This document shows, piece by piece, positions 3,348-62,196 of a DNA stretch of 64,000 nucleotides (positions within the stretch are counted from its first letter, which is position 1; each line of letters opens with the position of its first letter). The stretch is from Planctomycetota bacterium (GTDB taxonomy: Bacteria > Planctomycetota > Phycisphaerae > SM23-33). The notes under the pieces are model-generated. The model made no database searches. It was given only the letters and a program-made list of their open reading frames with translations, and was not told the DNA's origin. Position numbers and translations under genes: made by a program. The stretch covers positions 21,119 to 85,118 of the forward strand of contig DAOVZK010000002.1 of NCBI GenBank assembly GCA_030635145.1. The letters are read 5' to 3'.

Positions 3348-3559
3348 TAAGCGTTCACACTCTTTTTCCTGTCAATCAAACTATTTTTTGACAGGATTAC
3401 AGGATTAACTATGAATTATTAAAAAGAAAACCAGAATAAAAGCGACTAGCTACAAACGACCTCGCAAAGAATACAAATTTCTATGTAAATTAATCCTGAT
3501 TAACAGGATTTTTAAGCCTATATTCCATCCTGTTATCCTGTCTAAAATTCTGTGAATGG
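3348..3559. repeat. AT-rich intergenic repeat element, copy A of a four-copy family
   Basis: GC ~30% against ~57% in the flanks. It shares its ends with copies at 7630, 9344 and 61946. The left end is aagcGTTCACactctttttCCTGTCAATC...tttttTTGACAGGATtACAGGATtaacta and the right end is AATCCTGATTAACAGGATttttaagcctatattccATCCTGTTATCCTGTCtaaaattctGTGAATgg. The GTTCAC/GTGAAT termini are inverted. Confidence 0.75.
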
Positions 3560-3614
3560 CTATCTACCCGTGAATCTCCCAAGCATCCAATTTAAAAAAT
3601 CTACAATTCCCGGT

Positions 3615-3835
3615 GGGTCGTAGCACTGGTGGTATTGTTGTCAGAAGCTGGGTGCCGTGGTTGCGGAGTTTGCAACCACGTTTAACCCTACCACTGGAAT
3701 CCAGGGGATGTAGAAACGACACGGAAAATCCTCTGGATCCCCGATCGGGGTCGGGGATGACACAGAGGCTGACGCCTATTGCCAAGTGCCTACATTTAGC
3801 CTCCGGTGCTACCGGTGCCTCCCTCGCAGAGGGTC
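3615..3835. repeat. REP-like palindromic element cluster (copy 1), containing the perfect hairpin CCGTGGTTGC-ggagttt-GCAACCACG
   Basis: The 42-bp block ctgggtgccgtggttgcggagtttgcaaccacgtttaac recurs at 52748-52790 with one substitution. The boxes GGGTCGTAGCAC and CCGGTGCTACCGG are shared with 52548-52672, partly in inverted orientation. Several further GC-rich hairpins (ccctcgcagaggg, ccccgatcgggg) are present. Confidence 0.4.
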
Positions 3836-4021
3836 GCATGAATACTTTGTTTGATAAACAGGCAAAAGGGCATGAATATTTAGATTTTTTATTCTACCTT
3901 CGTAATACCACGGGCGTAAGCCCGTAGTTATTTACTTTCTTAAAAAAGTGTTGTCTGGTATGCTCTGAACCGCAGTTATCGGAGGCTGTTAGAAGCCTCC
4001 ACGATTCTTCAGGAGATTTAC

Positions 4022-5284
4022 ATGACCGCACTAAACAGTATCGAATCCGTCCGCAACGCCGCCGTCAAGGCCGTCGCCGAAACCACCATCACCGACCTGC
4101 ACACGCATATTTTCCCGCCGTCTCACGAAAACCTGCTGCTGTGGGATATCAACGAGCTGCTGACGTACCACTATCTGGTGGCCGAGCTGTTTACCATGGC
4201 CCCCGCCGAAATTACGTATCAGGCGTTCTGGAAAATGTCGAAAACCCAGCAGGCCGACCTGGTTTGGGAAAACGTGTTCCTGAAGCACGGCCCGCTCTCG
4301 GAAGCCTGTCGCGGAGTGATGACGGTTATCAGCAAGCTTGGGCTGCAGGATGAGCTGGCCAAACGCGACCTCGGGGCCATCCGCAAATGGTTCGCCGCGC
4401 AGAAGGTCGAAGATTACGTCCAGAAGGTGTTCGATATCGCCGGGCTGGACTACGCGATTATGACAAACGATCCGTTCGTACCGCTTGAAGCTACGCAGTG
4501 GACCGAGGACAAACCCGGGCATCCGCTGATGAAGACGGCACTTCGCATCGACAAGCTGATAGTCAACTGGCCGCACGCCGTGGAGATAATGCGGTCGTAC
4601 GGGTACGACGTTCAGGTGCTCGACGATAGCAGCTATTCCGAGGCGAGGCGGTTTTTGAAGCATTGGGCCGAAAAGCTCAAGCCCGAATACATGGCTGCCT
4701 CGTTGCCGCCCGATTTTGAGTATCCCAAAGACGACGCCATGGGCCGAGCGATGCAAAACATCGTCTTACCAGTGGCCGAGGAGCTGAACCTTCCGCTGGC
4801 GATGATGATCGGTGTGCGAAATCGCGCTACGGTCAACCCCGCACTGGGTGATGCCGGTGACGCCGTCGGCGTGGCAAACGTCGAAGCTGTGCAAAACCTC
4901 TGCCGCGAGAATCCCAACATCAAATTCCTCGTGACGATGCTGTCACGCGTAAATCAGCACGAGCTGACCGTGCTTGGGCGAAAGTTCCGCAACCTGCATC
5001 TGTTTGGATGCTGGTGGTACTGCAACAATCCGAGCATTATCGACGAAATGACGCGGCAGCGATTCGAGCTGCTCGGCACCGCGTTTACGGCGAATCATTC
5101 CGACGCCCGCGTGCTGGACCAACTGATCTACAAGTGGACGCACACGCGAAAAATCGTCGGTGGCGTACTGGCCGACAAATACGCCGACCAATTTATCGCC
5201 GGATGGCGAGTCACCGAAGACGAAATCAAGCGCGACGCCCGCCACATCCTCGGCGGATCGTTCGAAGCATTTATGAAAAAATAA
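4022..5284 (+). CDS. uxaC: glucuronate isomerase-like amidohydrolase (UxaC family)
   Basis: The N-terminal DLHTHIFPP resembles the DYHCHLPP metal motif of UxaC. The C-terminal FGCWWYCNNPSIIDEMTRQRFELLGT...ANHSDAR parallels UxaC GSGWWFNDQKDGM...MLTDSRS. An AGGAGA RBS sits 6 nt upstream of the ATG. Confidence 0.55.
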   Translation: MTALNSIESVRNAAVKAVAETTITDLHTHIFPPSHENLLLWDINELLTYHYLVAELFTMAPAEITYQAFWKMSKTQQADLVWENVFLKHGPLSEACRGVMTVISKLGLQDELAKRDLGAIRKWFAAQKVEDYVQKVFDIAGLDYAIMTNDPFVPLEATQWTEDKPGHPLMKTALRIDKLIVNWPHAVEIMRSYGYDVQVLDDSSYSEARRFLKHWAEKLKPEYMAASLPPDFEYPKDDAMGRAMQNIVLPVAEELNLPLAMMIGVRNRATVNPALGDAGDAVGVANVEAVQNLCRENPNIKFLVTMLSRVNQHELTVLGRKFRNLHLFGCWWYCNNPSIIDEMTRQRFELLGTAFTANHSDARVLDQLIYKWTHTRKIVGGVLADKYADQFIAGWRVTEDEIKRDARHILGGSFEAFMKK

Positions 5285-5327
5285 TCTCGCTGTAAATAAA
5301 TCCAACGGCGCAAAAGGCGCAAAAAAA

Positions 5328-5358
5328 TACCCCGGTCGGCAAAACCCGGGGTATTTTT
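5328..5358. terminator. bidirectional rho-independent terminator between convergent genes
   Basis: The hairpin TACCCCGGtcggcaaaaCCCGGGGTA is flanked by an A-run on the left and TTTTTATTTTAT on the right. It can terminate uxaC-like (+) and the lipoprotein gene (-). Confidence 0.6.
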
Positions 5359-5370
5359 ATTTTATATCCT

Positions 5371-6102
5371 CTACCACTTGTAGAAAGTCACAACGCCGCG
5401 TTTGGAAACGTAAACGGCGAAGTGGTTTTTCCATGATCGCCGTCGCGGATTTTCGCGTTCAAACAGAATCCAGTAGTTCCCGTCGATTTTCTTGTCTTTG
5501 ATTTTATACTCACCCAGTTTGGCACCGTGGCGGCGGGCGAGTTTCTCGGCGAACCTGTAGGCCTCTTTCTTTTTAACCTTATCTTTCTCCATTTTTCGGC
5601 CGAAATCGCGCCGGTCCCCGTCCATGTACGTCGTAACGTGGGTTTTACCTCGCGGCCCGCGGGCTACGCGAATGGCGAAAAAGTCACGGCGGCGATCGCG
5701 GTTTTTATGCTTGTCACGCCGATGCGTAAACAGCATCCAATACACACCGTCGATTTCCTTGTCCTTGATCTTGAAATGGTCGACCTCCATCCCACGAGCT
5801 TCGACAAGTTCTTCGGCAATGTCGCGGGCCTCGTCTTTTTTCAGCTTCTTGTGTTTGCGGCGGCGATGCCTTCTGTCGTCGTCATCGTCGTCATCCCGGT
5901 CGCGGTCGTGGTCGCGATCTTCCCATCGATCGTCATCGTCGTCATAGCGAACATAACGATCATCATCGTCGTAGTAGTCGGGGATGTCGACGTTGCCCTG
6001 CACGCAGCCGACAGCTGAAATCACGACCCCAGCAGAAAGAAGAACTAAAACCACCCACGCCTTCGAAAACTTCGGAAATTTCGGTAAAAAACGTTCCGCC
6101 AT
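5371..6102 (-). CDS. lipoprotein with an Asp/Arg-rich low-complexity region and two tandem ~70-aa PepSY-like repeats
   Basis: Signal peptide plus lipobox (LLSAGVVISAVGC). A D-rich tract (DDDDRYVRYDDDDDRWEDRDHDRDRDDDDDDD) follows. The duplicated module is ...HFKIKDKEIDGVYWMLF... and ...EYKIKDKKIDGNYWILF... Confidence 0.7.
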   Translation of the reverse strand: MAERFLPKFPKFSKAWVVLVLLSAGVVISAVGCVQGNVDIPDYYDDDDRYVRYDDDDDRWEDRDHDRDRDDDDDDDRRHRRRKHKKLKKDEARDIAEELVEARGMEVDHFKIKDKEIDGVYWMLFTHRRDKHKNRDRRRDFFAIRVARGPRGKTHVTTYMDGDRRDFGRKMEKDKVKKKEAYRFAEKLARRHGAKLGEYKIKDKKIDGNYWILFERENPRRRSWKNHFAVYVSKRGVVTFYKW

Positions 6103-6260
6103 GATATGTCTCCCAAATTAGCGTTGATAACATCAAACAATTATCGCGACACCCTACGCCCCAGCTGACTCACCGCAGGCGACCCGTCAAACTATGTGCC
6201 TTTATTCTATCCCCGCCAACCCTGTCCATCAAACGAGAATGAAAAAATTCAACCCCGCGA

Positions 6261-7589
6261 TTAATACGCCCTTAGTATTTTGGCACCTGGGTAGTAGAAT
6301 TCGAGAATTTTCTCAGCGGACTGGCCGCTCTTGGCACGGTCCTCGGCGCCCCATTGGCTCATCCCGACACCATGCCCGTAACCGGTACCGGCGTAGAATT
6401 CGATAGCGTCGCCGATGTCGCGAATTTGGCAGTTCATAGAGTAGAGTTTCTTGGCGGCCTCGACTTTACTCCGCAGCATGCACAGGCGAAGATTCTCGGC
6501 ACGGACTTTTACGCTTTTTCCGTCGCGATTGACGACGTCAAAAAATATCGGGCGGCCGTAATCGGTCTTAGACTGAACCCGCAGCGTTTTCATATTCCCG
6601 AGCTTGCGGATACTCGAATACTGTTTTGCCAGCGCGTTATAGATGTCGGTTTTCCGCAGCCGAACCGGATGCCACGAATATCTCGGGGAATCCTTACCCA
6701 TTCCGTCATGCTGTCCGCCCTGCAGCGGCGGCCATTCGACATCCACACCGTCGCGAATGACATACGCCCCGTTAACATACCCGCCATTGCTCGCGGAAAA
6801 TTGCGACAGGAAGATTCGCTCTTCGCCTTCAGGGCCATACGCTAAGACCCATCCGTGCGTTTTGCGGACGGCGTCCCAGGCTTTGTCGGTTTCGTAGAGC
6901 ATACCCTGATAGACCTGCGATATCTGCGTGGCCCAAACGTCGAACGAGCTTTTCTTCCCGCGGGTGACCATCTCGTAAAGGGCATACGTGCGGGCAGCGA
7001 CGGCCTGGGCGCGGTAGGTCTCGGGATGGAAATACGCGTACAACTCTTTGGGAACGACCCCGGCGACGTAGCTTTCGAAGTTGACATTGTTGTGCACGTA
7101 AAAGTTGTTGTCCTTGGCGGGTATCAGTACGAGCTTACCGCGATACAACCGCTTGTCGAACCCCACGAGTCCGTTGTTTTTGTCGGTGGGTTCAATCGTG
7201 AGCGTTTTACCCGGTATCTTGTCGTCGCCGAGAATCCACAATCCGTTTTTACGACGCACGGTCGTCTTGGGCATTTTCTGATCGTTGCTGCCAACTTTGT
7301 TTCCGTCGACGAAAATCTTGTACGGCGACGACGTAGAAATCACCGCCTTGGACACCGAACTACTCGTCAGACGAACGCGAATTGTGGGCACACCCTGAAA
7401 GCACAGCGGTTGATGCTTTTCGTTGCGCAAGTTCGTCTTGTTGTCACCACAGCTGGAAAGTATCAGCGACGCTGCCCCGCACGCAACGAGCATCATCAGT
7501 ATCGGAATCAACGGAGCGTAACGATTAACCGTAGCTCGCCAGTTTATTTTCATGTTCGCATCTCGAACGATTTGTATGCCATATTTCAT
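6261..7589 (-). CDS. SpoIID/LytB domain protein (amidase enhancer family), probable lipoprotein
   Basis: AARTYAL, SQFSASNGG and GYGHGVGMSQWGA motifs with an N-terminal signal and a LILSSC lipobox. GGAGA RBS upstream. An alternative start at the internal Met (7553) is possible. Confidence 0.85.
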   Translation of the reverse strand: MKYGIQIVRDANMKINWRATVNRYAPLIPILMMLVACGAASLILSSCGDNKTNLRNEKHQPLCFQGVPTIRVRLTSSSVSKAVISTSSPYKIFVDGNKVGSNDQKMPKTTVRRKNGLWILGDDKIPGKTLTIEPTDKNNGLVGFDKRLYRGKLVLIPAKDNNFYVHNNVNFESYVAGVVPKELYAYFHPETYRAQAVAARTYALYEMVTRGKKSSFDVWATQISQVYQGMLYETDKAWDAVRKTHGWVLAYGPEGEERIFLSQFSASNGGYVNGAYVIRDGVDVEWPPLQGGQHDGMGKDSPRYSWHPVRLRKTDIYNALAKQYSSIRKLGNMKTLRVQSKTDYGRPIFFDVVNRDGKSVKVRAENLRLCMLRSKVEAAKKLYSMNCQIRDIGDAIEFYAGTGYGHGVGMSQWGAEDRAKSGQSAEKILEFYYPGAKILRAY

Positions 7590-7629
7590 AACGTCTCCGC
7601 CGTTTCAAAAATTTTCAGTTCCGTCTGAA

Positions 7630-7880
7630 AATCCTTTTCCTGTCAATCACACTAATTTTTTTGACAGGATTACAGGATAGTTGTTTATTTTAAGTTTTCA
7701 GTTATCAGCAAACAGGCTTCAGAAAGAGAAGATTAATCACCGTAAGAGATCGCAAAGAACGCGAAAGAAAAACATCTTTCTTTGTGGTCTATGTGTTCCT
7801 TGTGGTGAATCTTCTTTTTATATTGGATTAACATGATTTATTTTTGATCCTGTTATCCTGTCTCGAAATTCATCTGAATC
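7630..7880. repeat. AT-rich intergenic repeat element, copy B (most divergent)
   Basis: ttttCCTGTCAATCacactaattttttTTGACAGGATTACAGGATag...GATCCTGTTATCCTGTCtcgaaattcatctgaatc. It shares the internal tcgcaaagaa block with copy A and has the same orientation as the other copies. Confidence 0.65.
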
Positions 7881-7959
7881 AGTCTATCAAGAATTCAACC
7901 TCACGCCAAATTATTATCGGCATGATTGTGTCGCCCGCCGCAGCATAGTTGAGGAGCGC

Positions 7960-7991
7960 AAAAAAAACCCCGCAATCTTGCGATCACGGGG
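7960..7991 (-). terminator. rho-independent terminator (minus strand)
   Basis: The minus strand reads CCCCGtgatcgcaagattgCGGGG followed by TTTTTTTT. Confidence 0.55.
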
Positions 7992-7997
7992 CGGCGC

Positions 7998-8050
7998 TTG
8001 GCAAGCAAGAGATCGGGGAATCGAACCCCAACTGGGTCACCACGCTCTCC
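7998..8050 (-). other. tRNA-like 3'-half fragment (T-arm plus acceptor-like 3' strand), not a complete tRNA
   Basis: The minus strand reads GGAGAGCGTGGTGACCCAGT-TGGGG-TTCGATT-CCCCG-ATCTCTTGCTTGCCA. The T-arm is canonical but no D-arm or anticodon arm and no matching 5' acceptor strand can be found. Confidence 0.3.
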
Positions 8051-8168
8051 TGCGATTGCTGTATCTACAAATGTCATTGTAGCAGAGATTGCTTAGGTGT
8101 GGAGAGGAAAATCTAAAAAAATCAGGGATTTCCCTACTCGGCCTAATCATCGATTTTGACACACAAAC

Positions 8169-8201
8169 AAAAAAAAGCCCCAAAAACGTCGTTTAAGGGG
8201 C
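8169..8201 (-). terminator. rho-independent terminator downstream of tRNA-Gln (palindromic, could act bidirectionally)
   Basis: GCCCCaaaaacgtcgtttaaGGGGC hairpin flanked by an A8 run on one side and T5 on the other. Confidence 0.55.
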
Positions 8202-8208
8202 TTTTTCA

Positions 8209-8279
8209 CAGGGGATCAGGGATTTGAACCCCGACTAAGTGGTCCAGAACCACTCGTGCTACCATTACACTAATCCCCC
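8209..8279 (-). tRNA. tRNA-Gln (anticodon CUG)
   Basis: Hand-folded cloverleaf: acceptor GGGGGAT/ATCCCCT, D-arm GTGT-AATGGTA-GCAC, anticodon arm AGTGG-TTCTGGA-CCACT (U33, CUG, G37), T-arm CGGGG-TTCAAAT-CCCTG, discriminator G. CCA is not encoded. Confidence 0.85.
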
Positions 8280-8363
8280 GAATGGGGAATGCGGCAAATG
8301 TCACCGCTTCTGGAATTCCTACTGCAAATTTATCTGGTGCAAAAAATGTCAACCAAACAAAAC

Positions 8364-8449
8364 TGCCCGGGACTGGAGTCGAACCAGCACTTGGTATTAA
8401 CCAAACTAGGCCCTCAACCTAGCGCGTCTGCCTATTCCGCCACCCGGGC
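8364..8449 (-). tRNA. tRNA-Leu (anticodon GAG), long variable arm
   Basis: Acceptor GCCCGGG/CCCGGGC, 3-bp D-stem GCG-GAATAGGCAGA-CGC, anticodon arm CTAGG-TTGAGGG-CCTAG, variable arm TTGGTtaatACCAA, T-arm GCTGG-TTCGACT-CCAGT, discriminator A. Confidence 0.85.
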
Positions 8450-8663
8450 TTTTTCACCAGTTTCCGGCAAATCTCCATCGAAAAATCCATTACCGAAAAT
8501 TACCGAAAACAAGGACGGATAACATAGTCGCGAACCTCCAGAATGTCAAGAGCGAGCTGAAATTCTTGCTCAGGTATTTTTTATGCCCATGTTTGGGAAA
8601 CCAATGCATGAAAACCACCAGTGAGCTATTGCCCCGAGCCAAAAACGCCGGTATAAGAAGCAT

Positions 8664-9347
8664 ATGCTGAAACTATTCGTCAAAATTTGCGGTATCACCC
8701 AGCCAAAACAAGCCCAGCAAATCGCTGCACTCGGTGCCGATGCCATCGGGCTTGTATTCGCCAAATCTCCGCGCCAAATCACACCAGTGATGGCACGCGA
8801 AATTGTGGTGAGCTTACCCGACGAGTTTCCAACTGTGGGCGTGTTCGTAAATTCCTCCGCCGATGAGATCAACCCCATTGTCTCGCAAACCGGAATCAAA
8901 TACGTACAGCTACACGGAAACGAACCGGCATCGATTCTCGCCGACATCGACGCGCCCTGCATAAAGGTCTTTACTATGCGCGGGGAAGATTGGCTCACCG
9001 AGATCCGCGAATTCCTCGACACCGTCGACGGGAATGATGAAAAAAAATCCGATAACCTCGCAGCTATCCTTATCGACACGTATAATCCGAAGCTCGCCGG
9101 TGGGACGGGTGAATGTTTCGACTGGACTACCGTCGCCGCAGCACGCGATAACGGCGAGATGGACTTGATGCCCCCACTGCTGATGGCTGGTGGGTTGAAA
9201 TCCGAAAACGTCATCGAAGCCGTCAATCTCGTCAAGCCCTGGGGCGTCGATGCCTCCAGCGCTTTGGAAATCGAACCCGGGGTTAAGGACATGGACAAAG
9301 TCGAGGCGTTTATCGGCGAAGTTCGCCAAAACTGCGATAAATGTTAG
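8664..9347 (+). CDS. trpF: phosphoribosylanthranilate isomerase
   Basis: KICGIT...VQLHGNE...GGTGECFDW...PLLMAGGLKSENV matches TrpF signature segments. Confidence 0.85.
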   Translation: MLKLFVKICGITQPKQAQQIAALGADAIGLVFAKSPRQITPVMAREIVVSLPDEFPTVGVFVNSSADEINPIVSQTGIKYVQLHGNEPASILADIDAPCIKVFTMRGEDWLTEIREFLDTVDGNDEKKSDNLAAILIDTYNPKLAGGTGECFDWTTVAAARDNGEMDLMPPLLMAGGLKSENVIEAVNLVKPWGVDASSALEIEPGVKDMDKVEAFIGEVRQNCDKC

Positions 9348-9562
9348 CTGTTCACAATTTTTCCTGTCAATCTGCTAAAACATTTTTTTTGACAGGATCA
9401 CAGGATTAACTACAAATTATGGAGAAGAAAAAAAACGTTAACCCCATGGTATCGGGACTAATACTACCACAGGTACAAACATGCCGTCCTGAATTTTGAT
9501 CGACAGGATTTTTTAGCCCTATATCTTATCCTGTCATCCTGTCACAAATTTTGCATGAACGG
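9344..9562. repeat. AT-rich intergenic repeat element, copy C
   Basis: ctGTTCACaatttttCCTGTCAATCtgctaaaacatttttttTTGACAGGATCACAGGATTAACTAcaaat...cgACAGGATttttTagccctatatcttATCCTGTCATCCTGTCacaaattttgcatgaacgg. It starts 3 bp before the trpF stop codon and ends ~100 bp before the next start codon. Confidence 0.7.
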
Positions 9563-9665
9563 ATACGGTAAATGACCATCCCACATTTTCAATAGACTCT
9601 TGATTCTCGCTCGCAGGGGCGTATGATGCCTATCTCGATTTGTTCCCATAATTCAAGGAGCGTAA

Positions 9666-10343
9666 ATGGCCTCGTTTAAGATGAATCTTGCAACAATTGA
9701 AGGATGTCCCGACCCCAAGACCCTGTCCGATGCGATGGAAGAGTACGGGCTGCCCGACGACGAAGAGTTCGGTGTGCTTAACTGCTCACCGGGCGACCAG
9801 GCGTTGTACGGAACCATCATTCGCAAGACGAATCAGGCGATCCAGAGGCTCGACCCCGAAACCCACGACGTAGCCACGACAGCTGTCGAAAAAGTAACCG
9901 TCTATCCGTTGGGCGTGTTTACACAGCGTAAGGTTTTGGAAGTTTACGAGGGTTCGACCACCGGCATTGAGCAGGTTGGAGCGTTTTTCGCCAGTGCCCT
10001 CGCCTTACCGACCGTCGTTACTCCCATTGAGCTTGATATCGTTTCGACTATCGAGAAGCTGCAGAAAAATACCCAGCGGTTTCAGCTGCGAAGCGTGCGA
10101 ATTTCCGACTACGCACACAACTCGTACATGGCTGGGCCTTACGCGCCGAAATTCCTCGACAGCGACCACGGTGCCGACTTCCTCGCCGAATACGCAGACT
10201 TTGTCGCCTCGGCGTCGGTGCGATTTCATGGCCCGCACGGAAGAGTTACGCTGAACCTCACCCCAAAAGCTTGCTTTAGATATTCGCTTAGCAACGAGGA
10301 CGACAAACCCGCCGTCCAGGCAATACTGCGAAAGCTGATCTGA
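9666..10343 (+). CDS. hypothetical protein (no recognisable domain)
   Basis: 225-aa ORF with a strong AAGGAG RBS 6 nt upstream of the ATG, coding-like GC content, and a hairpin (ATGCTGcaagaCAGCAT) after the stop. Confidence 0.6.
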   Translation: MASFKMNLATIEGCPDPKTLSDAMEEYGLPDDEEFGVLNCSPGDQALYGTIIRKTNQAIQRLDPETHDVATTAVEKVTVYPLGVFTQRKVLEVYEGSTTGIEQVGAFFASALALPTVVTPIELDIVSTIEKLQKNTQRFQLRSVRISDYAHNSYMAGPYAPKFLDSDHGADFLAEYADFVASASVRFHGPHGRVTLNLTPKACFRYSLSNEDDKPAVQAILRKLI

Positions 10344-52544: not shown

Positions 52545-52800
52545 CCAGGGGGTCGTAGCACAACAGGTAATAAAAAACCCGCGAGAATCGTAAGAGTGGA
52601 ATATCCAACACCCAACACTCAATGTCCAATTTTCAAGGTAAGAGAACCACAGCCCGGTAGCACCGGTGGCGATAAAAGACACAGATAGACACAGATTTTT
52701 TTGTCACCCTCGCGAAAGCGGGGGTCCAGTATTTTCTGGGTGGCTGGGTGCCGTGGTTGCGGTGTTTGCAACCACGTTTAACAAAAATTCCGATTCCCGT
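52545..52800. repeat. REP-like palindromic element cluster (copy 2)
   Basis: Contains GGGGGTCGTAGCAC, CCCGGTAGCACCGGTGG, the GNRA-capped hairpin CCCTCGCgaaaGCGGGGG, the shared 42-bp block ctgggtgccgtggttgcggtgtttgcaaccacgtttaac, and a second hairpin CGTGGTTAtcccgcgaaacgcggtgTAACCACG reusing the same arms. Confidence 0.4.
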
Positions 52801-52844
52801 GGTTATCCCGCGAAACGCGGTGTAACCACGCCACCCGTCGTAAC

Positions 52845-53262
52845 ATTGTAGACTTACATTACGGCATTGCAGGCTTACATCGTGACATTGTAAGGTTACA
52901 TTACGGCATTGCAGGCTTACATCGTGGCATTGTAAGGTTACATTACGGCATTGCAGGCTTACATCGTGGCATTGCACGCTTACATTGAGGCATTGTAGAC
53001 TTACATTACGGCATTGTAAGGTTACATTACGACATTGTAAGTTTACATTGAGGCATTGCACGCTTACATTACGGCATTGCACGCTTACATTGAGGCATTG
53101 TAAGCTTACTCCGAGGCAAAGTAAGTTAACTCTACGGTAAAGTCAGCTTACTCTGTGGCAAAGTCAGTCAACTCTACGGCAAAGTCAGTCAACTCTACGG
53201 CAAAGTCAGCTTACTCCGAGGCAAAGTAAGTTAACTCTATGACAAAGTAAACGATCAAAATA
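52845..53262. repeat. tandem array of ~20 direct 21-bp repeats in two subfamilies, each unit with a dyad core GTAAnnTTAC
   Basis: Units 1-13 fit CATTG-YARGN-TTACAT-YRNGG (for example cattgcaggcttacatcgtgg / cattgtaaggttacattacgg alternating). Units 14-19 fit CAAAG-TMAGY-TWACTC-YRNGG. There are no spacers, so this is not CRISPR. The minus-strand ORF 52633..53082 (LQCRNVT heptads) is a translation artefact of the repeat. Confidence 0.8.
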
Positions 53263-54675: not shown

Positions 54676-55251
54676 TTAGTTTCTCCTCGTTAGCATTTTC
54701 ATTCGTTCGTGGAATGGATGAGAGGTATTGTGTTCAGCATTCAGCGGAAGGTTTAAGTGCTTCTGAATGATAAGCTTCTCAATGTCACCAATATCCCCTT
54801 GACTAAAATCGTGAGGCACAATGCCCCCGCCCTTAACAACCCAACAGACAAAGGCGTTTTTCGCCATCCAATCTGACAATTGCTTTTCGTCGAAATCTAG
54901 CAACAGTTTCAGCTTTTTTCTGAGAGTGGAAACGGATTCAGAATTTCCACAGTGGAATTGGCGTATCCTACGGTCAAGATTGTTTGAGATTCCAACATAT
55001 ATCAGCACCTTCTTGGAAAACATTCCGCCAGCTTTTACGCAGCCTCTCGTTGGCACTCCATGTGGAACCTCCTTGAAGTACCACCCATAGATACCTGGAT
55101 CAGGCGGAATACACGGGGACTGAGTGATAATCTTCGTTACACCAGCAAGAAATGAGGGTTTTCTAAACGTCTTGGCGACCTTCTTGGCTACACGTTTCAA
55201 TTGTTTCAAATCTGCCATTAATGCGATCCTCTTACTACAGAAAATTCCCAT
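54676..55251 (-). CDS. GIY-YIG-like nuclease-domain protein with an unknown C-terminal domain
   Basis: PGIYGWYFKE ... VLIYVGISNNLDRRIRQFH resembles GIY ... YVG ... R..H of GIY-YIG with an unusually long (~30 aa) spacer. Low GC. Confidence 0.55.
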   Translation of the reverse strand: MGIFCSKRIALMADLKQLKRVAKKVAKTFRKPSFLAGVTKIITQSPCIPPDPGIYGWYFKEVPHGVPTRGCVKAGGMFSKKVLIYVGISNNLDRRIRQFHCGNSESVSTLRKKLKLLLDFDEKQLSDWMAKNAFVCWVVKGGGIVPHDFSQGDIGDIEKLIIQKHLNLPLNAEHNTSHPFHERMKMLTRRN

Positions 55252-55431
55252 CAGCCATGGGCCGGGTTTTAACCCGGCGTTGTTTTGGTAGCCGCAACTT
55301 TACATAATGCCGGGTCGAGACCCGGCCTACAAGCAAAAAAATCCGTGTCTATCAGTGTTAATCCGTGGTTCTCTTTCTTCTCTTCTCTGCAATTCCGAAA
55401 TCCGAATTCCACAATCCGAAATAGGCCCACG

Positions 55432-56346
55432 CTAGTGGGCAGCGAGCATCACGAGGAATGCAAAAGCGATTGGGGCAGCGAGGAGCGGTGAGTCGAGAAT
55501 ATCCAACACTCCGCCGAATTCCGGCACGACAGCACCGGAGTCTTTGACCCCGGCCGAGCGTTTCATCAGCGATTCGCACAAATCTCCGAACTGCCCGAAA
55601 ACCCCGACGATTACCGCGAATAAAATCGCCACCGAGCTGCCCAAAACCGGCGCGGCTGTCCACTTTAGCAGCCACCACCCCAACAGCCCGACGATAGCGG
55701 CGGCGGCGAGGCCACCGGCGAGGCCTTCCCATGTTTTACCGGGGCTTAACCACGGAATCAGCTTATGCTTGCCGAAAAACGATCCGGTAAAGTACGCTCC
55801 GATATCGGTGCACTTGACAGCTGCGAGGAAAAGTATCAGAACCTCGAGGCCGTAAAACATTCGGATTTCGAGTATGCATCCGGCACAGGCCCCGATGTAG
55901 GCGATGCCCAAAAACGTGCACGCCACCGAACGCAAAGCATCTTTTAATCGCGCGACAATCATCTGCTCTAAAAACGCCAATCCCAGCACCAGCAGAATTC
56001 CGCTACGCGTGCCGAACAGGAAAAGTATCTCCTGCAGCCATCGCGGAAATCCGCCCAGCTCGCCATGCCGCTCCAAACCCGTAATCCACGACCCAACGAC
56101 CAGCAGCACAATCCCCACGATTCCGCTGACCCACAACACCCGCACGCCGGTAGTTTTGACCATCCGCGCAAATTCGATGAAGCCCAAAATCATGATCGGA
56201 AAAAACACGATCACCAGCGGTAATCCACGCAGCGACATTTCCCCGCAATGTTTTCCTTCGAGGAACCAGTCCAGAAGAAATATGCCCACCAGCAGAGCGA
56301 TCATCGAGCCGCCAAACGTGATGCGGGTTATCATTGTTTTTTTCAT
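55432..56346 (-). CDS. cdsA: phosphatidate cytidylyltransferase (CDP-diglyceride synthase)
   Basis: The C-terminal LMKRSAGVKDSGAVVPEFGGVLDILDS is the CdsA signature. Multiple TM helices. The start is taken at MKKTMITR. Confidence 0.8.
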   Translation of the reverse strand: MKKTMITRITFGGSMIALLVGIFLLDWFLEGKHCGEMSLRGLPLVIVFFPIMILGFIEFARMVKTTGVRVLWVSGIVGIVLLVVGSWITGLERHGELGGFPRWLQEILFLFGTRSGILLVLGLAFLEQMIVARLKDALRSVACTFLGIAYIGACAGCILEIRMFYGLEVLILFLAAVKCTDIGAYFTGSFFGKHKLIPWLSPGKTWEGLAGGLAAAAIVGLLGWWLLKWTAAPVLGSSVAILFAVIVGVFGQFGDLCESLMKRSAGVKDSGAVVPEFGGVLDILDSPLLAAPIAFAFLVMLAAH

Positions 56347-56508
56347 AATATCAGCCTTCCTGTAATTGTCAGCCCAATGGGATCTTCGTACAATGAGTAT
56401 TAAACGCAATTTTGTCCATTCAACCAAGATGAAAATTTTCCAAAATCCCATAGGCATTGCAAAAACGCTTGATATACTGAGGAATTCGTTTGCCATCATT
56501 GAAGGAGC

Positions 56509-56970
56509 TTGGAGTTACGTATGGAACTTAAACAGTATCTGAAAGAAGAAAGCGTTTTTGTCGCTGAAGGGACCACGAAGCAACAAGTCCTGGAAGAGTC
56601 GGCGGATGTATGCGCAGCTGCGACGCACATCGACCGCAAGACGTTGCTGGAAGCGATTAACCATCGCGAAAGTTTGATGAGCACGGGTATCGGGCAAGGG
56701 TTGGCCGTGCCGCATGTGCGACTGGCCGAAGCAAAACGCCCTGCCCTGGCGGTTGCGATTTGCCCCGACGGTATCGCCGACTACGCCGCCATCGACAATA
56801 AACCCATAACCATCGTCGTGCTGATCGTTGCGCCTCGGGGCCGGCACGAAACATATATACGCTTGCTCGCCGAGGTCGTCGAAGTTCTCAAGCAACCCGA
56901 ACTGCGCGAAAAAATCATTACCGCCGACACGCCAACGCGGGCGTACCAAAATCTGATCGGAGAAAACTAA
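56509..56970 (+). CDS. ptsN: PTS EIIA type-2 domain protein (PtsN/EIIA-Ntr-like regulator)
   Basis: HRESLMSTGIGQGLAVPHVRL contains the phosphorylatable His region of EIIA-2. Confidence 0.75.
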   Translation: MELRMELKQYLKEESVFVAEGTTKQQVLEESADVCAAATHIDRKTLLEAINHRESLMSTGIGQGLAVPHVRLAEAKRPALAVAICPDGIADYAAIDNKPITIVVLIVAPRGRHETYIRLLAEVVEVLKQPELREKIITADTPTRAYQNLIGEN

Positions 56971-58748
56971 TGGCTACCATCCCATTGGGGGTAATTGAAA
57001 CCGGACACTTGTCCATCTTGCTGCTGTTGGGTTTTGCGTTGTTCGGCGGATCGATGGGGGCGAGGTTATTCCAGAAAATGCGAATTCCGCAGGTCGTCGG
57101 ATACATTGCCATCGGTTTGCTGATAGGTGAGAGCGGGTTCAAACTCATAGCGTCAGCCGACGTCGAAAATTTTCGGCAGTTCAATTATTTCGCGCTGGGC
57201 ATCATCGGATTTCTCGTCGGCGGTGAGCTTAAGGGCGCGATCTTCAAAAAGTACGGCAAGCAGTTCATGGCGATTCTGCTGGGCGAAGGCTTGGGGGCCT
57301 TTCTGCTGGTTGGAATTTCGACGGGTTTGTTCCTGTACTTTCTGATCGACAATCCCACCATCGCGTTGGCTGGTGGCATCGTGTTTGGCGCAATCGCGTC
57401 GGCCACCGACCCAGCGTCGACCATCGACGTTTTGTGGGAGTATCGCAGCAAGGGCGTGCTGACGACGGGATTAGTCGCGATCGTTGCCCTCGACGACGCA
57501 TTGGCGATGACGTTGTACGGTTTGGGAACCGCAGCTGCGGGAATGCTGATGGGCGGGTCGGATTCGTTTGCCGTCGCCATCGGAAAAGTCTGCATCGAAC
57601 TCTTCGGTGCAATCGGCGTTGGGGCAGCAGCCGGTTTGATACTGAACTTCATCATCCGCCACCTCCATCAACCCGACAAAACTCTCACCGTCGCCATCGG
57701 ATCTATCCTGATTGTGATCGCCGCGTCCGTAATTTGGGAGATGGACGTAATCCTGGCGACCATGACCATGGGCGTTGTGCTAATCAACATCGCGCCGCGC
57801 CGCTCAAAAGACCTTTTCAAAATCGTCCGCAGTTTCTCTCCGCCGATATACGTAATCTTCTTCGTGCTCGTGGGGGCAAGGCTTGGCATCGGGTCAATGC
57901 CTGGTTGGATGTGGGGCATCGTGGGATTGTACGTGTTTTTTCGCACGCTTGGCAAAATGGTCGGAACGTATGTTGGTGCCAAAATCACCAAGGCCCCGGC
58001 CGTAATCCAAAAATACGCGGGAATGGGCCTGTTCGCTCAGGGCGGAGTGGCGGTGGGTCTTTCGATTATGGCTGGGCAGCATCTTGGGGACTACGAAGTC
58101 ACCGGTGGCATGATGCTCGGTGATATGATCATCTTCGGTGTGACAGCAACAACGCTAATCGTGCAAATTCTCGGCCCGCCGATGGTTAAGTTGGCGATTC
58201 GGCTGGCGGGTGAATCCGGGATGAACATCACGCGCGAGGATCTCCTGAAATCTTACAGCGTCGCGGATATAATGGTAGCTGACCCGGCGACGTTATCCGA
58301 GGGCGACTCGTTCCACAAAATCATGCAGACGCTCAGCACCACCGACGCGATGACGTATCCGGTCGTCGACGAAAACAAAACGCTGCTGGGTATCATCACG
58401 GTGGAGGGGCTAAAAACGTCGCTGGGCCAGCAGAGTCTCTCGCAGCTATTGGTAGCCTACGACCTTATGCAATCTCCACCGGACACCGCCTCGCCCGACA
58501 TGCCGCTCGAAACAGCAATGACACTTATGCGCGAACAGAACCTGGAATACTTAACGGTTACGTCACCGTCGCAAGATGGCGACGGTAAGCAGCTGGAAGG
58601 TTTGCTGGAATATCGAAGAGTCGAACGGAAACTCGATCACGAACTTCTCCGCCGCCAGGAAGCCGCCTCCGATTGCGAACAATCGATGCTGCTGAAGGCT
58701 GCGATTCAAAAACATCGTAAAAATACTGGTCTGACGAGCGAGAAATGA
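56970..58748 (+). CDS. CPA2-type monovalent cation/proton antiporter with a C-terminal CBS pair
   Basis: ~12 TM helices with GIIGFLVGGELK-like cation/H+ exchanger segments. C-terminal CBS motifs (SVADIMVADPATLSEGDSFHKIMQTL..., TYPVVDENKTLLGIITVEGL). The start overlaps the ptsN-like stop (TAATG). Confidence 0.8.
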   Translation: MATIPLGVIETGHLSILLLLGFALFGGSMGARLFQKMRIPQVVGYIAIGLLIGESGFKLIASADVENFRQFNYFALGIIGFLVGGELKGAIFKKYGKQFMAILLGEGLGAFLLVGISTGLFLYFLIDNPTIALAGGIVFGAIASATDPASTIDVLWEYRSKGVLTTGLVAIVALDDALAMTLYGLGTAAAGMLMGGSDSFAVAIGKVCIELFGAIGVGAAAGLILNFIIRHLHQPDKTLTVAIGSILIVIAASVIWEMDVILATMTMGVVLINIAPRRSKDLFKIVRSFSPPIYVIFFVLVGARLGIGSMPGWMWGIVGLYVFFRTLGKMVGTYVGAKITKAPAVIQKYAGMGLFAQGGVAVGLSIMAGQHLGDYEVTGGMMLGDMIIFGVTATTLIVQILGPPMVKLAIRLAGESGMNITREDLLKSYSVADIMVADPATLSEGDSFHKIMQTLSTTDAMTYPVVDENKTLLGIITVEGLKTSLGQQSLSQLLVAYDLMQSPPDTASPDMPLETAMTLMREQNLEYLTVTSPSQDGDGKQLEGLLEYRRVERKLDHELLRRQEAASDCEQSMLLKAAIQKHRKNTGLTSEK

Positions 58749-58838
58749 CGATTATTTATTAGAGGCTGTTTCAGTGGGATGTGTATGCATTGTGCGAAAC
58801 GCAACCGCTGCGGTAACCTCGGTAGAAGGAGCTTTGCG

Positions 58839-59366
58839 ATGAAAACATTGGGTATCATTTTTTCAGTTTTAGTATGCGTTGCAGTTGCCGGTTGCATGGT
58901 GCCGAAAGACGACTACGAAAAAGTCTCAGCCGAGCTTACCAACGCACAACAACTTACCAAAGAAGCCAACGACGCCCATCTGAAAGTCGCCGAGGAAAAC
59001 CGGCAACTCCAAACCACTCTGAGAGAAACGCAGACGAAGCTCAACCCGGTACAAAAAGAACTCGACGAGGTCAAAGCACAACTCGCCGACTCCAAGGCCA
59101 CACACAAAAAAGATGTCTCTACGCTTGAAGCAGAAAACGAAAAGCTCCAAACCGAGTGCGACGATGCCGCAGCCAAAACGAAAAAGACTAAAAATCAGCT
59201 CACCACCTGCCAGTCAGAACTGGAGGTTGCAAAGAAAAAGAATCAAGGTCTGCTGGAAATGATCGATCGGCAGAAGCTGATAATCAAGGATCTGGAGAAA
59301 AGCAACGCCGCCGCGAGCAAAAATATCGACCCCAAAACCGGCCCCTCTTCCACGCCACAGAAATAA
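58839..59366 (+). CDS. coiled-coil lipoprotein
   Basis: MKTLGIIFSVLVCVAVAGC lipobox then the coiled coil LQTTLRETQTKLNPVQKELDEVKAQLADSKATHKKDVSTLEAENEKLQTE. Confidence 0.6.
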   Translation: MKTLGIIFSVLVCVAVAGCMVPKDDYEKVSAELTNAQQLTKEANDAHLKVAEENRQLQTTLRETQTKLNPVQKELDEVKAQLADSKATHKKDVSTLEAENEKLQTECDDAAAKTKKTKNQLTTCQSELEVAKKKNQGLLEMIDRQKLIIKDLEKSNAAASKNIDPKTGPSSTPQK

Positions 59367-59983
59367 GCGGCTGGAATCATGCTAGACATTTTTCAGTTTT
59401 TTGTCCCGAAATGCCGCGCATCGGCCTCGAAATGTATAAATCCACGAAAAAACTTTTCGCGACAATGTCGGCCTCTCGAAAAAAAAGAATCCCCTCAAAA
59501 CTCTACCTCCCCAGCTTAGGATTACGAAATCTATCGGAAATAAATTCCAGTGGCATATTCGGCGACATTTCAAAAACAGCCCCTTTTTTCACGTTTTTTT
59601 TGGCGTTTTAAATATTTTCACCCAATAGCAGGGCACAATAAAACGCCTTGTAACCTCAAAAATCGATCGGCCTGGCCGAAGCAGATGTTTTTTTCGTGTC
59701 ATTTATTCCTGGATTTTATGAAAACCCCTTGCAATTTTGCCGAACAATCATAATATTTTCCACTTCATTCAATTCCATAAGGCCGGTACAATACATGTGG
59801 TCTCGGGTTGTTTGGGTTTTTTTCAGCTGTGTAAAGAACCGGTGTGTTTGTGATGTAACTGGTTGTATACGCGGGAAAGTCCGAGTCTTGGAGACCGACG
59901 GGGCTTTCTTGGTTTTGTATTTGGTATAACATCGCTTACATACGTCCTCATAACTGCGTGCGAAGTACTCAGGAGTGTGTCAG

Positions 59984-60580
59984 ATGGCTATAGGACGAGT
60001 GAAGTGGTATGACAAGGGTAAGGGGTATGGTTTCATTGAGAGTCCTGAAGGGGATGTGTTTTTCCACTTCAGCGACATCCACATGGATGGTTTTAAGGCG
60101 CTCGCCGAAGACCAACGCGTTTCCTATCGTGTAACTCACAGTGAGCAGGGTTTAAAGGCTCGCGAAATTCGGCCGTTGGACAACCGCGCTACGGTTCGCC
60201 ACGCCGCAAGATATCGCACAGTAATCCTGATGAAACTCAAATCCGGGTGTGAACAGGCATTCGACAATGTCTTTACGGACATTCCCGCATGGTTCGACTC
60301 GTTCGAGCAGGATATCGGGGTTCGCCGAATCGGCACGTGGCGAAACGATACCGCCGCCGTGCATCTTATCGAATCCGATCGCCCTTACGACCAGTCGCTA
60401 AAGTCGGCTGAGACTACCCCTAATTGGGAACACTTCACCCAGTGGCAAGGCGAACTTGATGCACTGCTCGAAAGCGAATCCATCGAAATGAACCCCGTCC
60501 AACCTGACGAGGTTGAAGAAGACGTCGAATCGGATGAGACGCAAGAGCAGGTGGAAGAAGTTTCTACCGAAGAAGCTTAG
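59984..60580 (+). CDS. cold-shock domain protein with a long acidic C-terminal extension
   Basis: [32 protein letters not shown] (CSD RNP motifs). AGGAG RBS. A ~600-bp AT-richer 5' leader/intergenic region lies upstream. Confidence 0.75.
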
Positions 60581-60646
60581 GGTAATGCGGCACAACGGCG
60601 GGCTTTCCGCTGGATATCGGCGTCTGCTGGCGTGTATACTTCTGCT

Positions 60647-61012
60647 ATGCTGATACGAATCAAAGAGCTTCGACTCAACACCATTATCGGTACGAACCCG
60701 TGGGAGCGGGAAACTCCGCAGCAAATCGTCGTTAACATCGAAATGACCGTCGACGGAAAAACTTCCGCTGCAAGCGATGACCTCAACGACGCCGTCGACT
60801 ACGCCAATATCACCGAGCAAATCATTCAACGCGCCGCCGAGTGGAAATTCTTCCTGCTCGAAAAGCTAGCTACCGAAATTCTCAAAATCATCATCAACGA
60901 CGAACGCGTACTCACCGCCAGCGTCGAAACCGAAAAGCCCGCAGCTGTCCCCGACGCGAATGGTGTGTCGATTACCGTCAAATACGATCGCGAATCCGGG
61001 GTCATCGAATAG
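60647..61012 (+). CDS. folB: dihydroneopterin aldolase
   Basis: MLIRIKELRLNTIIGTNPWERETPQQIVVNIEMTVD...DDLNDAVDYANITEQI fits the FolB pattern. Confidence 0.75.
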   Translation: MLIRIKELRLNTIIGTNPWERETPQQIVVNIEMTVDGKTSAASDDLNDAVDYANITEQIIQRAAEWKFFLLEKLATEILKIIINDERVLTASVETEKPAAVPDANGVSITVKYDRESGVIE

Positions 61013-61023
61013 CATCTGAAACT

Positions 61024-61932
61024 ATGGAACAGCAGGTAAAAAAACCAGAGCGGCTGACACCGCGCAGGGTTACCTTCCTCGGGTTGGTGATGAACCTTAC
61101 GCTTGCCGGTGCCAAAATCGCAGCTGGGTTCGCTTTCTCCAGCAAAACCATCCTCGCCGATGGTGTCCACTCGCTGACCGATCTCGTCACGGACTTCGCC
61201 GTGCTCATCGGGCTGAAATACGGCGATGCCCCCCCGGACGAGTCGCATCCATACGGGCATCGGCGGGTGCATACGCTGGTGGCGCTTTTCGTGGGAATCG
61301 TCCTGCTGGTCACCGCAGGTTGGATCGGGCTTTCGGCGATCATGCAGCTGCACGGGCATACAGCAAAAACCATTGATGGACCAATACCGCTGATTCTGGC
61401 GTTGCTGACGATACCTGCAAAGGAACTGCTGTTTCGCCTTACGCGGCGAGTCAGTCGGCGAGACGGCAACCCCGCGTTGCTGGCAAATGCGTGGCACCAC
61501 CGAAGCGATGCGGTGACTTCGATAGTGGCGGCGGTAGGTATCGCAGGAGCAATGTTCCTGGGGCCGAAATGGGCGATACTCGACGACATCACAGCTGCGG
61601 TTTTGGCGGCGTTTATTCTGGCGGCCGCGGCGAAAATGATCCTCACCTCGGTTCTCGAACTGACCGACCACGCCCCACGCCCCGAACTGATCTCACGCAT
61701 CGAAAAAATCGTAGCCGATACCCCCGGTGTCGAGTGTTACCATCAGCTGCGAGCACGCAAACTCGGCGGGCAGGTTGACATGGACATTCACGTACTGGTC
61801 GATCCGAACCTGACCGTCGAGCAAGGGCACGGCGTTGCCAAGGCTGTTCGCGTGGGAATTCTAAACGCCGACCTCAGTGTGCAGCAGGTAATCGTACACA
61901 TCGAACCATACCACCCCGCCGAAAAACCGTAA
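61024..61932 (+). CDS. cation diffusion facilitator (CDF) family metal efflux transporter
   Basis: HSLTDLVTD, HPYGHRRVHTL, six TM helices and a C-terminal cytoplasmic domain. The ORF-track start at 60841 overlaps folB and is rejected in favour of ATG 61024. Confidence 0.85.
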   Translation: MEQQVKKPERLTPRRVTFLGLVMNLTLAGAKIAAGFAFSSKTILADGVHSLTDLVTDFAVLIGLKYGDAPPDESHPYGHRRVHTLVALFVGIVLLVTAGWIGLSAIMQLHGHTAKTIDGPIPLILALLTIPAKELLFRLTRRVSRRDGNPALLANAWHHRSDAVTSIVAAVGIAGAMFLGPKWAILDDITAAVLAAFILAAAAKMILTSVLELTDHAPRPELISRIEKIVADTPGVECYHQLRARKLGGQVDMDIHVLVDPNLTVEQGHGVAKAVRVGILNADLSVQQVIVHIEPYHPAEKP

Positions 61933-61945
61933 CCAATGACGCAAG

Positions 61946-62196
61946 TAAGCGTTCACGCTCTTATTCCTGTTAATCAAATATTTTTACCGAAGTTTTTCTT
62001 AAACATTCTTTTTTTGACAGGATCACAGGATTAACTATAAATTATTGAAAAAGAAAACAAAAACTATTAACGGTAAACCCCGTTGCAACGGTGCAGGGTT
62101 GAATTCTATCAGACGTACAACCTTTTAAATTATGATTAACAGGATTTTTAACCTATATCCTATCCTGTTATCCTGTCAAAATTTTCGCGTGAATGG
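61946..62196. repeat. AT-rich intergenic repeat element, copy D
   Basis: taaGCGTTCACgctcttaTTCCTGTTAATC...tttttTTGACAGGATCACAGGATTAACTATAAAttattgaaaaagaaaac...GATTAACAGGATTTTTAAcctatatcctATCCTGTTATCCTGTCaaaattttcgcGTGAATgg. It is near-identical to copy A over the central block and ends ~95 bp upstream of argG. Confidence 0.75.

Follow-up and report, generated by a model that had tools for sequence, protein, structure and literature searches.

ACAGGAT-repeat elements in a Planctomycetota genome as probable MITE-type derivatives of a GxxExxY gene cassette bracketed by inverted word arrays

What are the short AT-rich intergenic sequences, built around the heptamer ACAGGAT, that recur four times in one stretch of a Planctomycetota genome? 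The stretch, hereafter the window, comprises 64,000 nucleotides of contig DAOVZK010000002.1 (positions 21,119 to 85,118 of the forward strand; assembly GCA_030635145.1, Phycisphaerae, SM23-33), and its four copies, A to D, had been regarded in an original prediction as a miniature inverted-repeat transposable element (MITE), a small-RNA gene family or a mobile promoter/operator cassette. We conclude that the four copies are very probably non-autonomous elements of the MITE type, which would consist of the ends of a cassette that carries a GxxExxY gene bracketed by inverted ACAGGAT arrays. Of the options considered originally, it is the MITE that is supported, the evidence comprising terminal inverted repeats (TIRs), 8-bp duplications, a copy inserted in the stop codon of trpF, and relatives with the same ends that either carry the gene or are deletion derivatives.

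Four gene-less elements in the window

Direct inspection confirmed the four copies, each 217–261 bp long, at the places where they had been predicted and in a single common orientation, although the latter agreement among four copies has a chance of 1 in 8 and is uninformative. The heptamer ACAGGAT was found 24 times on both strands of the window, compared with an expectation of 4.61 ± 2.21 (the highest count in 100 shuffles was 10), and 19 of these 24 occurrences fall inside the elements; no further cluster of the heptamer or of its one-mismatch variants exists anywhere in the window. Exact heptamers number 5, 4, 5, and 5 in copies A, B, C, and D, respectively, and the five to six per element that had been predicted are reached only if one-mismatch copies are counted. 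The elements are AT-rich, as described (GC content 0.32–0.37), but their background has a lower GC content than the 57% given for it, namely 0.50–0.56 in the 2-kb flanks and 0.517 in the whole window.

Both predicted modules were recovered in all four copies by a repeat finder and by alignment: the left module reads TTCCTGTyAATC, a gap of 10–38 nt, and TTTTTTGACAGGATyACAGGAT, and the right module reads ATCCTGTyATCCTGTC. A third ACAGGAT is located about 17 nt ahead of the right module in copies A, C, and D, while copy B has no third exact heptamer and only degenerate outer termini. The layout reads as a single inverted word and, after a gap, a tandem pair, followed by the core, another single word, and, after a further gap, an inverted pair. 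The sole open reading frame (ORF) of at least 50 aa within any element is a 51-aa frame in copy B (7681–7836), and a hidden Markov model (HMM) of the GxxExxY protein has no match in the window; elements A–D are gene-less. The copies lie 36–100 bp from gene starts and adjoin dnaE, a SpoIID-like gene, trpF, and argG. The direction of the ancestral GxxExxY gene is the minus strand of the window, which is given below as the strand of each element.

Features of the four elements (window coordinates)
3347–3563, minus strand: copy A, whole element, 217 bp, GC 0.32
3339–3346: copy A, left target-site duplication CTACTCAT, 6/8 match to 3564–3571
3347–3358: copy A, TIR GTAAGCGTTCAC, corresponding to the 3' end of the ancestral cassette
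3366–3405: copy A, left module, with TTCCTGT at 3366–3372, a gap, and tandem ACAGGAT at 3391–3397 and 3399–3405
3417–3491: copy A, core, without relation to those of B, C, and D
3493–3541: copy A, right module, with ATCCTGA, ACAGGAT at 3503–3509, a gap, and tandem ATCCTGT at 3527–3533 and 3535–3541
3552–3563: copy A, TIR GTGAATGGCTAT
3564–3571: copy A, right target-site duplication CTACCCGT
7625–7885, minus strand: copy B, whole element, about 261 bp, GC 0.33; ends approximate because the termini are degenerate; the SpoIID-like gene on the minus strand starts at 7589, with the element beginning about 36 bp upstream
7637–7643, 7664–7670, 7672–7678, 7831–7837, 7847–7853, 7855–7861: copy B, words TTCCTGT, ACAGGAT, ACAGGAT, ACATGAT, ATCCTGT, and ATCCTGT, respectively
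9344–9566, minus strand: copy C, whole element, 223 bp, GC 0.37
9344–9355 and 9555–9566: copy C, TIRs TTAGCTGTTCAC and ATGAACGGATAC, respectively
9361–9367 (TTCCTGT), 9392–9398, 9400–9406, and 9503–9509 (ACAGGAT), 9528–9534 and 9536–9542 (ATCCTGT): copy C, words
9336–9343: copy C, left target-site duplication GATAAATG, holding the last trpF codons
9567–9574: copy C, right target-site duplication GGTAAATG, 7/8 match
61945–62200, minus strand: copy D, whole element, 256 bp, GC 0.32
61945–61956 and 62189–62200: copy D, TIRs GTAAGCGTTCAC and GTGAATGGTTAC, respectively
61964–61970 (TTCCTGT), 62017–62023, 62025–62031, and 62139–62145 (ACAGGAT), 62162–62168 and 62170–62176 (ATCCTGT): copy D, words
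61937–61944: copy D, left target-site duplication TGACGCAA, 8/8 identical to the right one
62201–62208: copy D, right target-site duplication TGACGCAA

Homology between the copies is limited to the ends of approximately 70–100 bp, which show pairwise identities of 0.73–0.93 (the maximum for shuffled controls is 0.80). The cores, of approximately 75–130 nt, have pairwise identities of 0.62–0.77, i.e., the level of shuffled sequence; neither the rest of the window nor about 200 fetched loci contain a match to them, and no remnants of the GxxExxY gene were detected in them.

Terminal inverted repeats, target-site duplications, and the insertion into trpF

The outer termini GTTCAC...GTGAAT that had been assigned to copies A, C, and D are real; however, they are part of a longer TIR of 12 bp, which is directly bordered in each of these copies by 8-bp direct repeats that had been missed. 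Counted by eye, the TIRs are complementary at 8 of 12 positions in A, 8 of 12 in C, and 10 of 12 in D, while those of B are degenerate. The duplications match at 8/8 positions in D, 7/8 in C, and 6/8 in A. Relatives with the same TIRs were found in other Planctomycetota loci, where the complementarity amounts to 11–12 of 12 positions (loci L018, L106, L189, and L191) and the duplications match at 8/8 (L018, L106, and L191) or 7/8 positions (L197); the match in L106 is ambiguous, since it falls within a tandem repeat. Loosely matching spurious pairs, used as a control, give 0–5 matches of 8, nearly all of them 4 or fewer. As judged from these footprints, the matched flanks show that the insertion reaction duplicates 8 bp of the target. 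Next to the left duplication of copy D, the sequence GTAACCAATGAC (61929–61940) resembles a TIR with two mismatches and could be either a remnant of an older end or a chance match.

Copy C lies in the stop codon of trpF. The present gene ends ...GAT AAA TGT TAG, where the stop codon TAG (9345–9347) is now inside the element and the T of TGT is element-derived as well, and the trpF product has gained one C-terminal Cys through the insertion. The right duplication together with A9575 keeps the inferred original stop, ...AAA TGA, and excision of copy C with one duplication in silico restores ...GAT AAA TGA. Among trpF orthologues of about 70% identity, one has only 127 bp ahead of the same 225-aa downstream gene, a spacer too short for an element, and no heptamer occurs in the three related trpF contigs with readable DNA. 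These observations are consistent with a lineage-specific insertion of copy C, as far as comparison at this distance can tell.

The gene-bearing cassette and its decay

The gene that the window copies would have lost was recognized from the loci in which the word arrays recur. Clustering of the ORFs from the scanned loci revealed one small family located directly beside or between large arrays in five phyla, and an HMM built from five of these array-associated proteins also matched a fragment inside L106. This locus, from a Planctomycetota metagenome-assembled genome (MAG), holds a 415-bp element with the TIRs GTAACCGTTCAC and GTGAACGGTTAC and with left and right modules of the window type. 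In the same MAG, L018 is a 219-bp element with perfect TIRs and a perfect duplication CAATAAAC; in its core, remnants of the N- and C-termini of the gene survive in frame. Truncation, to 47–88 aa, affects each of the 16 database sequences closest to the L106 fragment, and several of these show different internal deletions. Likewise, L189, L191 (perfect TIRs and the duplication TGATTTTC, 8/8), L018, and L106 carry differing internal deletions of the gene, and L193 has a full-length gene that is frameshifted by a 1-nt deletion.

A 122-aa protein was reconstructed from these decayed relatives and used as a search query. It retrieved more than 60 clusters of intact 122-aa proteins with 84–97% identity, mostly encoded on contigs of 0.5–2.4 kb, a length to be expected if the repeats break assemblies. 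Locus L197 (Planctomycetota, GCA_023143375.1) contains an intact 122-aa gene with TIRs and a 7/8 duplication, and loci L200–L203 contain intact genes and the right terminus. The full cassette measures 0.53–0.6 kb, and its only gene is the 122-aa GxxExxY gene.

In the alignment of these relatives with the reverse-complemented window copies, about 80 nt at the 5' end and about 85 nt at the 3' end are common, and the gene between them is intact, partly deleted, or replaced. The window copies align with the gene-bearing elements at the ends only: the retained 5' end consists of the TIR, GACAGGATnACAGGAT, and a degenerate inverted heptamer, the retained 3' end of ATCCTGTnATCCTGTC, GATTnACAGGAA, and the TIR, and 75–130 bp of unrelated sequence stand in place of the gene.

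One intact element, in L203 (approximately 940–990 and 1440–1470), combines a normal right terminus with a degenerate left terminus, and at its flanks a 20-bp direct repeat, GAAAAGTTTAAACCAC(G/A)ACG, takes the place of the 8-bp duplication; this could reflect insertion beside an older end or a rearrangement.

The GxxExxY family and its flanking word arrays

The array-associated family corresponds to TIGR04256 (E-value 9e-44) and PF13366, PDDEXK_3 (E-value 1e-41). The residues E27, D66, E76, and K78 of the motif GFLExxY ... D ... ExK are invariant in both alignments. An AlphaFold model of moderate confidence (pLDDT 69.5) shows the α-α-β-β-β-α-β core of PD-(D/E)XK nucleases; a sequence search of the PDB gave no relative of the protein, and PADLOC and PHROGs gave marginal matches to Cas4 and endonucleases only. 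The family is large, with 13,785 clusters at 50% identity (E-value ≤1e-3) among 1.84 billion representatives, and a survey that lists it notes "function unknown" and "multiple transfers" between divisions (PMC3424549). The literature searched contains no description of flanking arrays, TIRs, duplications, mobility, or MITE derivatives for GxxExxY genes; within it, the original view that the element matches nothing described holds, and the parent cassette and the arm layout of GxxExxY genes across many phyla are likewise undescribed. Some members (P0257–P0261, P0297, and others) are 250–270 aa long and contain two matched stretches, i.e., two GxxExxY domains per called product.

The association of the gene with the arrays was assessed in 80 GxxExxY loci from metagenomes that were chosen by protein similarity alone (46–73% identity to the query), although the query alignment was built from heptamer-associated genes and may favour that branch of the family. 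Exact ACAGGAT or ATCCTGT words occur within 250 bp of the gene at least once in 55 and at least twice in 50 of the 80 loci, and their density is 8.8 per kb in the flanks versus 0.4 per kb further out. The top heptamer upstream of the gene is ACAGGAT (48 loci), and the top heptamer downstream is ATCCTGT (39 loci). The words are spaced mostly at 9 bp in these metagenome loci and at 8 bp in the window lineage. In the 25 loci that lack ACAGGAT, the same layout is built of other words, such as ACAGAAT, ACAAAAT, ACACGGAT, ACACAGAT, ACGCAGAT, CGCTGAT, CACCGAT, GTAACAT, and ACAGAAG. A word-blind test detected tandem arrays of hexamers with an 8–10-bp period on both sides of the gene, inverted with respect to each other, in 30 of 69 loci versus none of 136 control positions shifted by at least 1.2 kb; a tandem array on one side with an inverted copy on the other was found in 55 of 69 loci and at 1 of 136 control positions. 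Outside the window lineage, no duplication was found beyond the arrays once the inverted repeat had been extended past them (0–4 matches of 8, the chance level). By a crude ORF-based count, the GxxExxY gene and the gene upstream of it point in the same direction in 53 of 60 loci.

Seven loci (L124, L131, L132, L143, L154, L156, and L158) carry an intact cassette with ACAGAAT arms at one common site in related genomes, at most about 10 nt from the stop codon of a conserved upstream gene and from the start of a conserved downstream gene. These neighbours, read from end sequences, are a candidate cdsA-like gene and a candidate dxr gene, respectively. This arrangement resembles lasting residence in an operon more than a recent move.

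ACAGGAT arrays in other genomes

One genome per species was scanned with the pattern TCCTGT-N12-42-GACAGGATNACAGGAT, for which about 8 chance matches are expected by our own arithmetic (21 fixed bases, 31 gap lengths, and 1.2e12 positions). The scan identified at least 106 stretches, many of them with several matches. Among the matches listed, all are from MAGs, and they cover the phyla Acidobacteriota, Planctomycetota, Verrucomicrobiota, Spirochaetota, Desulfobacterota, Bacteroidota, Firmicutes, Gemmatimonadota, KSB1, Hydrogenedentota, and others. The words in the scanned loci are arranged as tandem arrays in inverted pairs, in some cases as long arrays of 112–250-bp units, and they often occur in several successive intergenic regions. 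At least three copies are present in the Planctomycetota MAG VRUI01 (L018, L037, and L106), compared with four in the 64-kb window. A search for conserved neighbours of the 106 heptamer loci yielded no transposase, and the only recurrent array neighbour is the GxxExxY gene. The scan pattern is absent from 2.9 million viral contigs, nor were any GxxExxY relatives found in viral contigs, and a phage vector therefore finds no support.

Two further observations concern the build of these arrays. In several loci (L056 at 3556–3585, L029 at approximately 50–80, L008, L062, and L072 at 3600–3690), other tandem words of 8–9 bp adjoin the ACAGGAT arrays, among them aatccgcgt (three times), aatccgtga, acacggat/acgcggat, gtgacggg (three times), and aaaatgc (three times); in L072, they are arranged in nested mirror-image layers. 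Words of the ATCCGTG/ACACGGAT type, which are seen beside ACAGGAT arrays, also flank GxxExxY genes elsewhere. In addition, whole gene-less units are repeated head to tail in L004 (1–640), L006 (1–750), L050 (180–1950), and L066 (7388–7923), with unit lengths of 112, 187, approximately 247, and approximately 100 bp, respectively; in L050 and L066, these arrays directly adjoin an intact GxxExxY gene. The head-to-tail arrangement suggests insertion beside existing ends or unequal crossing-over.

Proposed mobilization by an IS66-type transposase

For the movement of these elements, we propose that an IS66-type transposase acts in trans on the termini and that the GxxExxY cassette travels as its passenger, which would make the cassette a mobile insertion cassette and the window copies its MITEs. 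The proposal rests on the termini and on the length of the duplication. The left ends of copies A and D, GTAAGCGTTCAC, start with GTAAGCG, and the other window ends and the relatives start with GTAACCG or GTAACCA, the former being one mismatch away from GTAAGCG (the relatives begin GTAACCGTTCAC). Inverted repeats starting with GTAAGCG and 8-bp direct repeats are hallmarks of the IS66 family (PMC11946415), one inverted repeat of which reads GTAAGCGTCCGG... (PMC12888890). The lack of duplications around the cassettes of other lineages fits this proposal, since those cassettes are devoid of the outer termini.

Several observations weigh against IS66-type mobilization or against the reading of A–D as mobile elements in general. 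The terminal complementarity extends over 12 bp, compared with 20–30 bp in typical IS66 elements, and is followed by about 8–10 unrelated bases before the heptamer modules begin. The consensus terminus of the family is GTAACCG, not GTAAGCG. Neither the 10 window ORFs tested nor the annotated neighbours of the fetched loci include an IS66-family transposase with these termini. Every element found with these termini carries the GxxExxY gene or its remnants, as would fit a nuclease that is needed for mobility. Copy B has degenerate termini and no recognizable duplication, and L189 has perfect TIRs yet no duplication (4/8); L190 likewise combines perfect TIRs with no duplication. Finally, the exact empty site was not found in a close strain: the unoccupied relatives are only about 70% identical, and look-ups of exact proteins, including that of the gene upstream of copy D, led only to element-carrying contigs or to no record.

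The ACAGGAT arrays are conserved arms of the cassette and most likely would serve as multimeric sites for the GxxExxY nuclease, as the words are tandem, periodic, and lineage-specific, like multimeric protein-binding sites. The nuclease is thus the obvious candidate for the ACAGGAT-binding protein postulated in the original prediction, with predicted sites on both arms. Alternatively, the arms may act through pairing, in RNA or in cruciform DNA, although pairing alone would not call for tandem periodicity. The window copies themselves have probably become inert relics; according to the folding models, read-through transcripts can still form strong hairpins from the long inverted repeats.

A more radical, and rather doubtful, view is that GxxExxY cassettes are unrecognized minimal selfish elements, in which a PD-(D/E)XK nuclease of about 120 aa with no DDE, HUH, or recombinase partner would recognize the lineage-specific word arrays of its own arms and spread or maintain both the cassettes and thousands of gene-less arrays. 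If this were true, the system would be an analogue of REPIN-RAYT based on a different enzyme fold, and the window copies would be its MITEs.

Still less likely is an autonomous 0.6-kb cassette whose GxxExxY nuclease binds the ACAGGAT arms, cuts the termini, and drives insertion, with the window copies as MITEs mobilized in trans. MITEs normally derive from an element that encodes their mobilizing enzyme, and no ORF other than the GxxExxY gene is present in any full-length element with these ends; moreover, the gene is accompanied by its arms, with words that vary by lineage, in more than 10 phyla, the catalytic residues do not vary, and no transposase was seen among the annotated neighbours or the 10 window ORFs. 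However, PD-(D/E)XK nucleases act by hydrolysis and are not known to catalyse strand transfer, the termini bear the IS66 signature, and some cassettes are stable at one orthologous site, next to the candidate cdsA-like and dxr genes, in several relatives. Furthermore, the absence of duplications past the arrays outside the window lineage (0–4/8) ties the 8-bp duplication to the outer termini and not to the nuclease.

Promoter, terminator, and small-RNA readings

It is highly improbable that the elements are host regulatory cassettes, comprising a sigma-70 promoter, an operator, and a terminator for an ACAGGAT-binding regulator, that are kept beside genes by selection. What speaks for such cassettes is that TTGACA opens the tandem heptamers in all copies and that gene starts lie 36–100 bp away; a promoter scan of the plus strand called copy D alone (TTGACA-18-TAAATT), and copy C has an outward-facing TTGACA-18-TAACAT. 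However, the calls made differ between copies, and the near-consensus promoter proposed originally, with TATAAA, TATGAA, or TACAAA as its -10 box, proved weak: the consensus scan did not call these boxes, since they lack the T at position 6, and the TATAAA box complements the region where the ancestral gene has its stop codon. The hairpin of the right module, taken earlier for an intrinsic terminator, was not called as such in any copy. In addition, dnaE, the SpoIID-like gene, trpF, and argG have no obvious common regulon, and a regulatory cassette leaves the TIRs, the target duplications, the hit on the trpF stop codon, and the deletion-derivative relatives unexplained.

The idea of a small-RNA gene family with transcripts of about 130 nt can be set aside, as the elements do fold better than shuffled sequences (z-scores of -5.1 for D and -3.7 for A) but the predicted folds consist of inverted-repeat pairing only and differ from copy to copy, the shuffle-level identity of the cores argues against a conserved transcript, Rfam matches nothing in the elements at its gathering threshold or at E ≤ 1, and homologous elements elsewhere hold a protein gene where the core would be.

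Comparison with known systems

MITEs, e.g., the Correia/NEMIS elements of Neisseria, are small, non-coding, multicopy intergenic sequences with TIRs and target duplications that originate by internal deletion, and they may bear promoter-like and hairpin-forming sequence near genes. The window elements resemble them in size (approximately 220–260 bp), lack of coding capacity, multiple copies, intergenic location, TIRs, and duplications, and in being shorter than a related element. They differ in that this longer partner measures no more than about 0.6 kb and has a gene for a 122-aa PD-(D/E)XK protein instead of a recognized transposase, that tandem and inverted heptamer arrays occupy the ends, and that the cores are mutually unrelated.

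With the IS66 family, the elements share the GTAAGCG start, in the left ends of A and D, and the 8-bp duplication (PMC11946415; PMC12888890), and tIS66 elements with passenger genes have been mentioned (PMC12888890). They differ from it in their 12-bp complementarity; no tnpA, tnpB, or tnpC was found among the 10 window ORFs and the annotated neighbours, and no parent insertion sequence was identified there.

The resemblance to REPIN-RAYT systems lies in a small single gene between inverted copies of a motif that is also scattered, gene-less, in intergenic regions. RAYTs are HUH/Y1 transposases, and REPs (repetitive extragenic palindromes) are GC-rich palindromes that are inserted without duplications, whereas the cassette described here combines a PD-(D/E)XK fold (PF13366) with AT-rich tandem heptamers, a multicopy gene, and, in the window lineage, 8-bp duplications. 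Membership in the REPIN-RAYT group was rejected, as the associated protein belongs to PF13366 and is not an HUH/Y1 transposase. Within the GxxExxY family itself (TIGR04256/PF13366), the gene of the parent cassette is a clear member, while the window copies have lost it. CsrA-sponge RNAs (with CAGGAUG-like words), pho boxes, MetJ-type 8-bp boxes, DnaA boxes, and ARG boxes were also considered and dropped for mismatches in period, sequence, or taxonomy.

Other repeats in the window

Two further repeats were observed in the window. A tandem array with a 21-bp period occupies positions 52844–53250 in a gene-poor stretch and comprises approximately 19 units of GGCATTGTAAGGTTACATTAC-like and GGCAAAGTCAGTCAACTCTAC-like sub-types. 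The hairpin-bearing 40-nt sequence GCTGGGTGCCGTGGTTGCGGwGTTTGCAACCACGTTTAAC occurs twice with 98% identity, just right of copy A (3647–3686) and just ahead of the 21-bp array (52743–52782); gggtcgtagcac is shared nearby as well. The 40-nt repeat represents another small family of repeats and has no relation to ACAGGAT.

Significance

The elements can change gene ends, as at the trpF stop codon, and set strong hairpins and promoter-like sequence beside housekeeping genes. They also appear to break assemblies, most of the contigs that carry them being 0.5–2.4 kb long. At least one Planctomycetota lineage has units that end in TIRs and make 8-bp duplications, and the arrays of inverted tandem words of 8–9 bp, which change with the lineage, are also dispersed without the gene in intergenic regions in the MAGs of many phyla. 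The wider finding is the arm layout around GxxExxY genes, which gives a large family of no assigned function a testable context.

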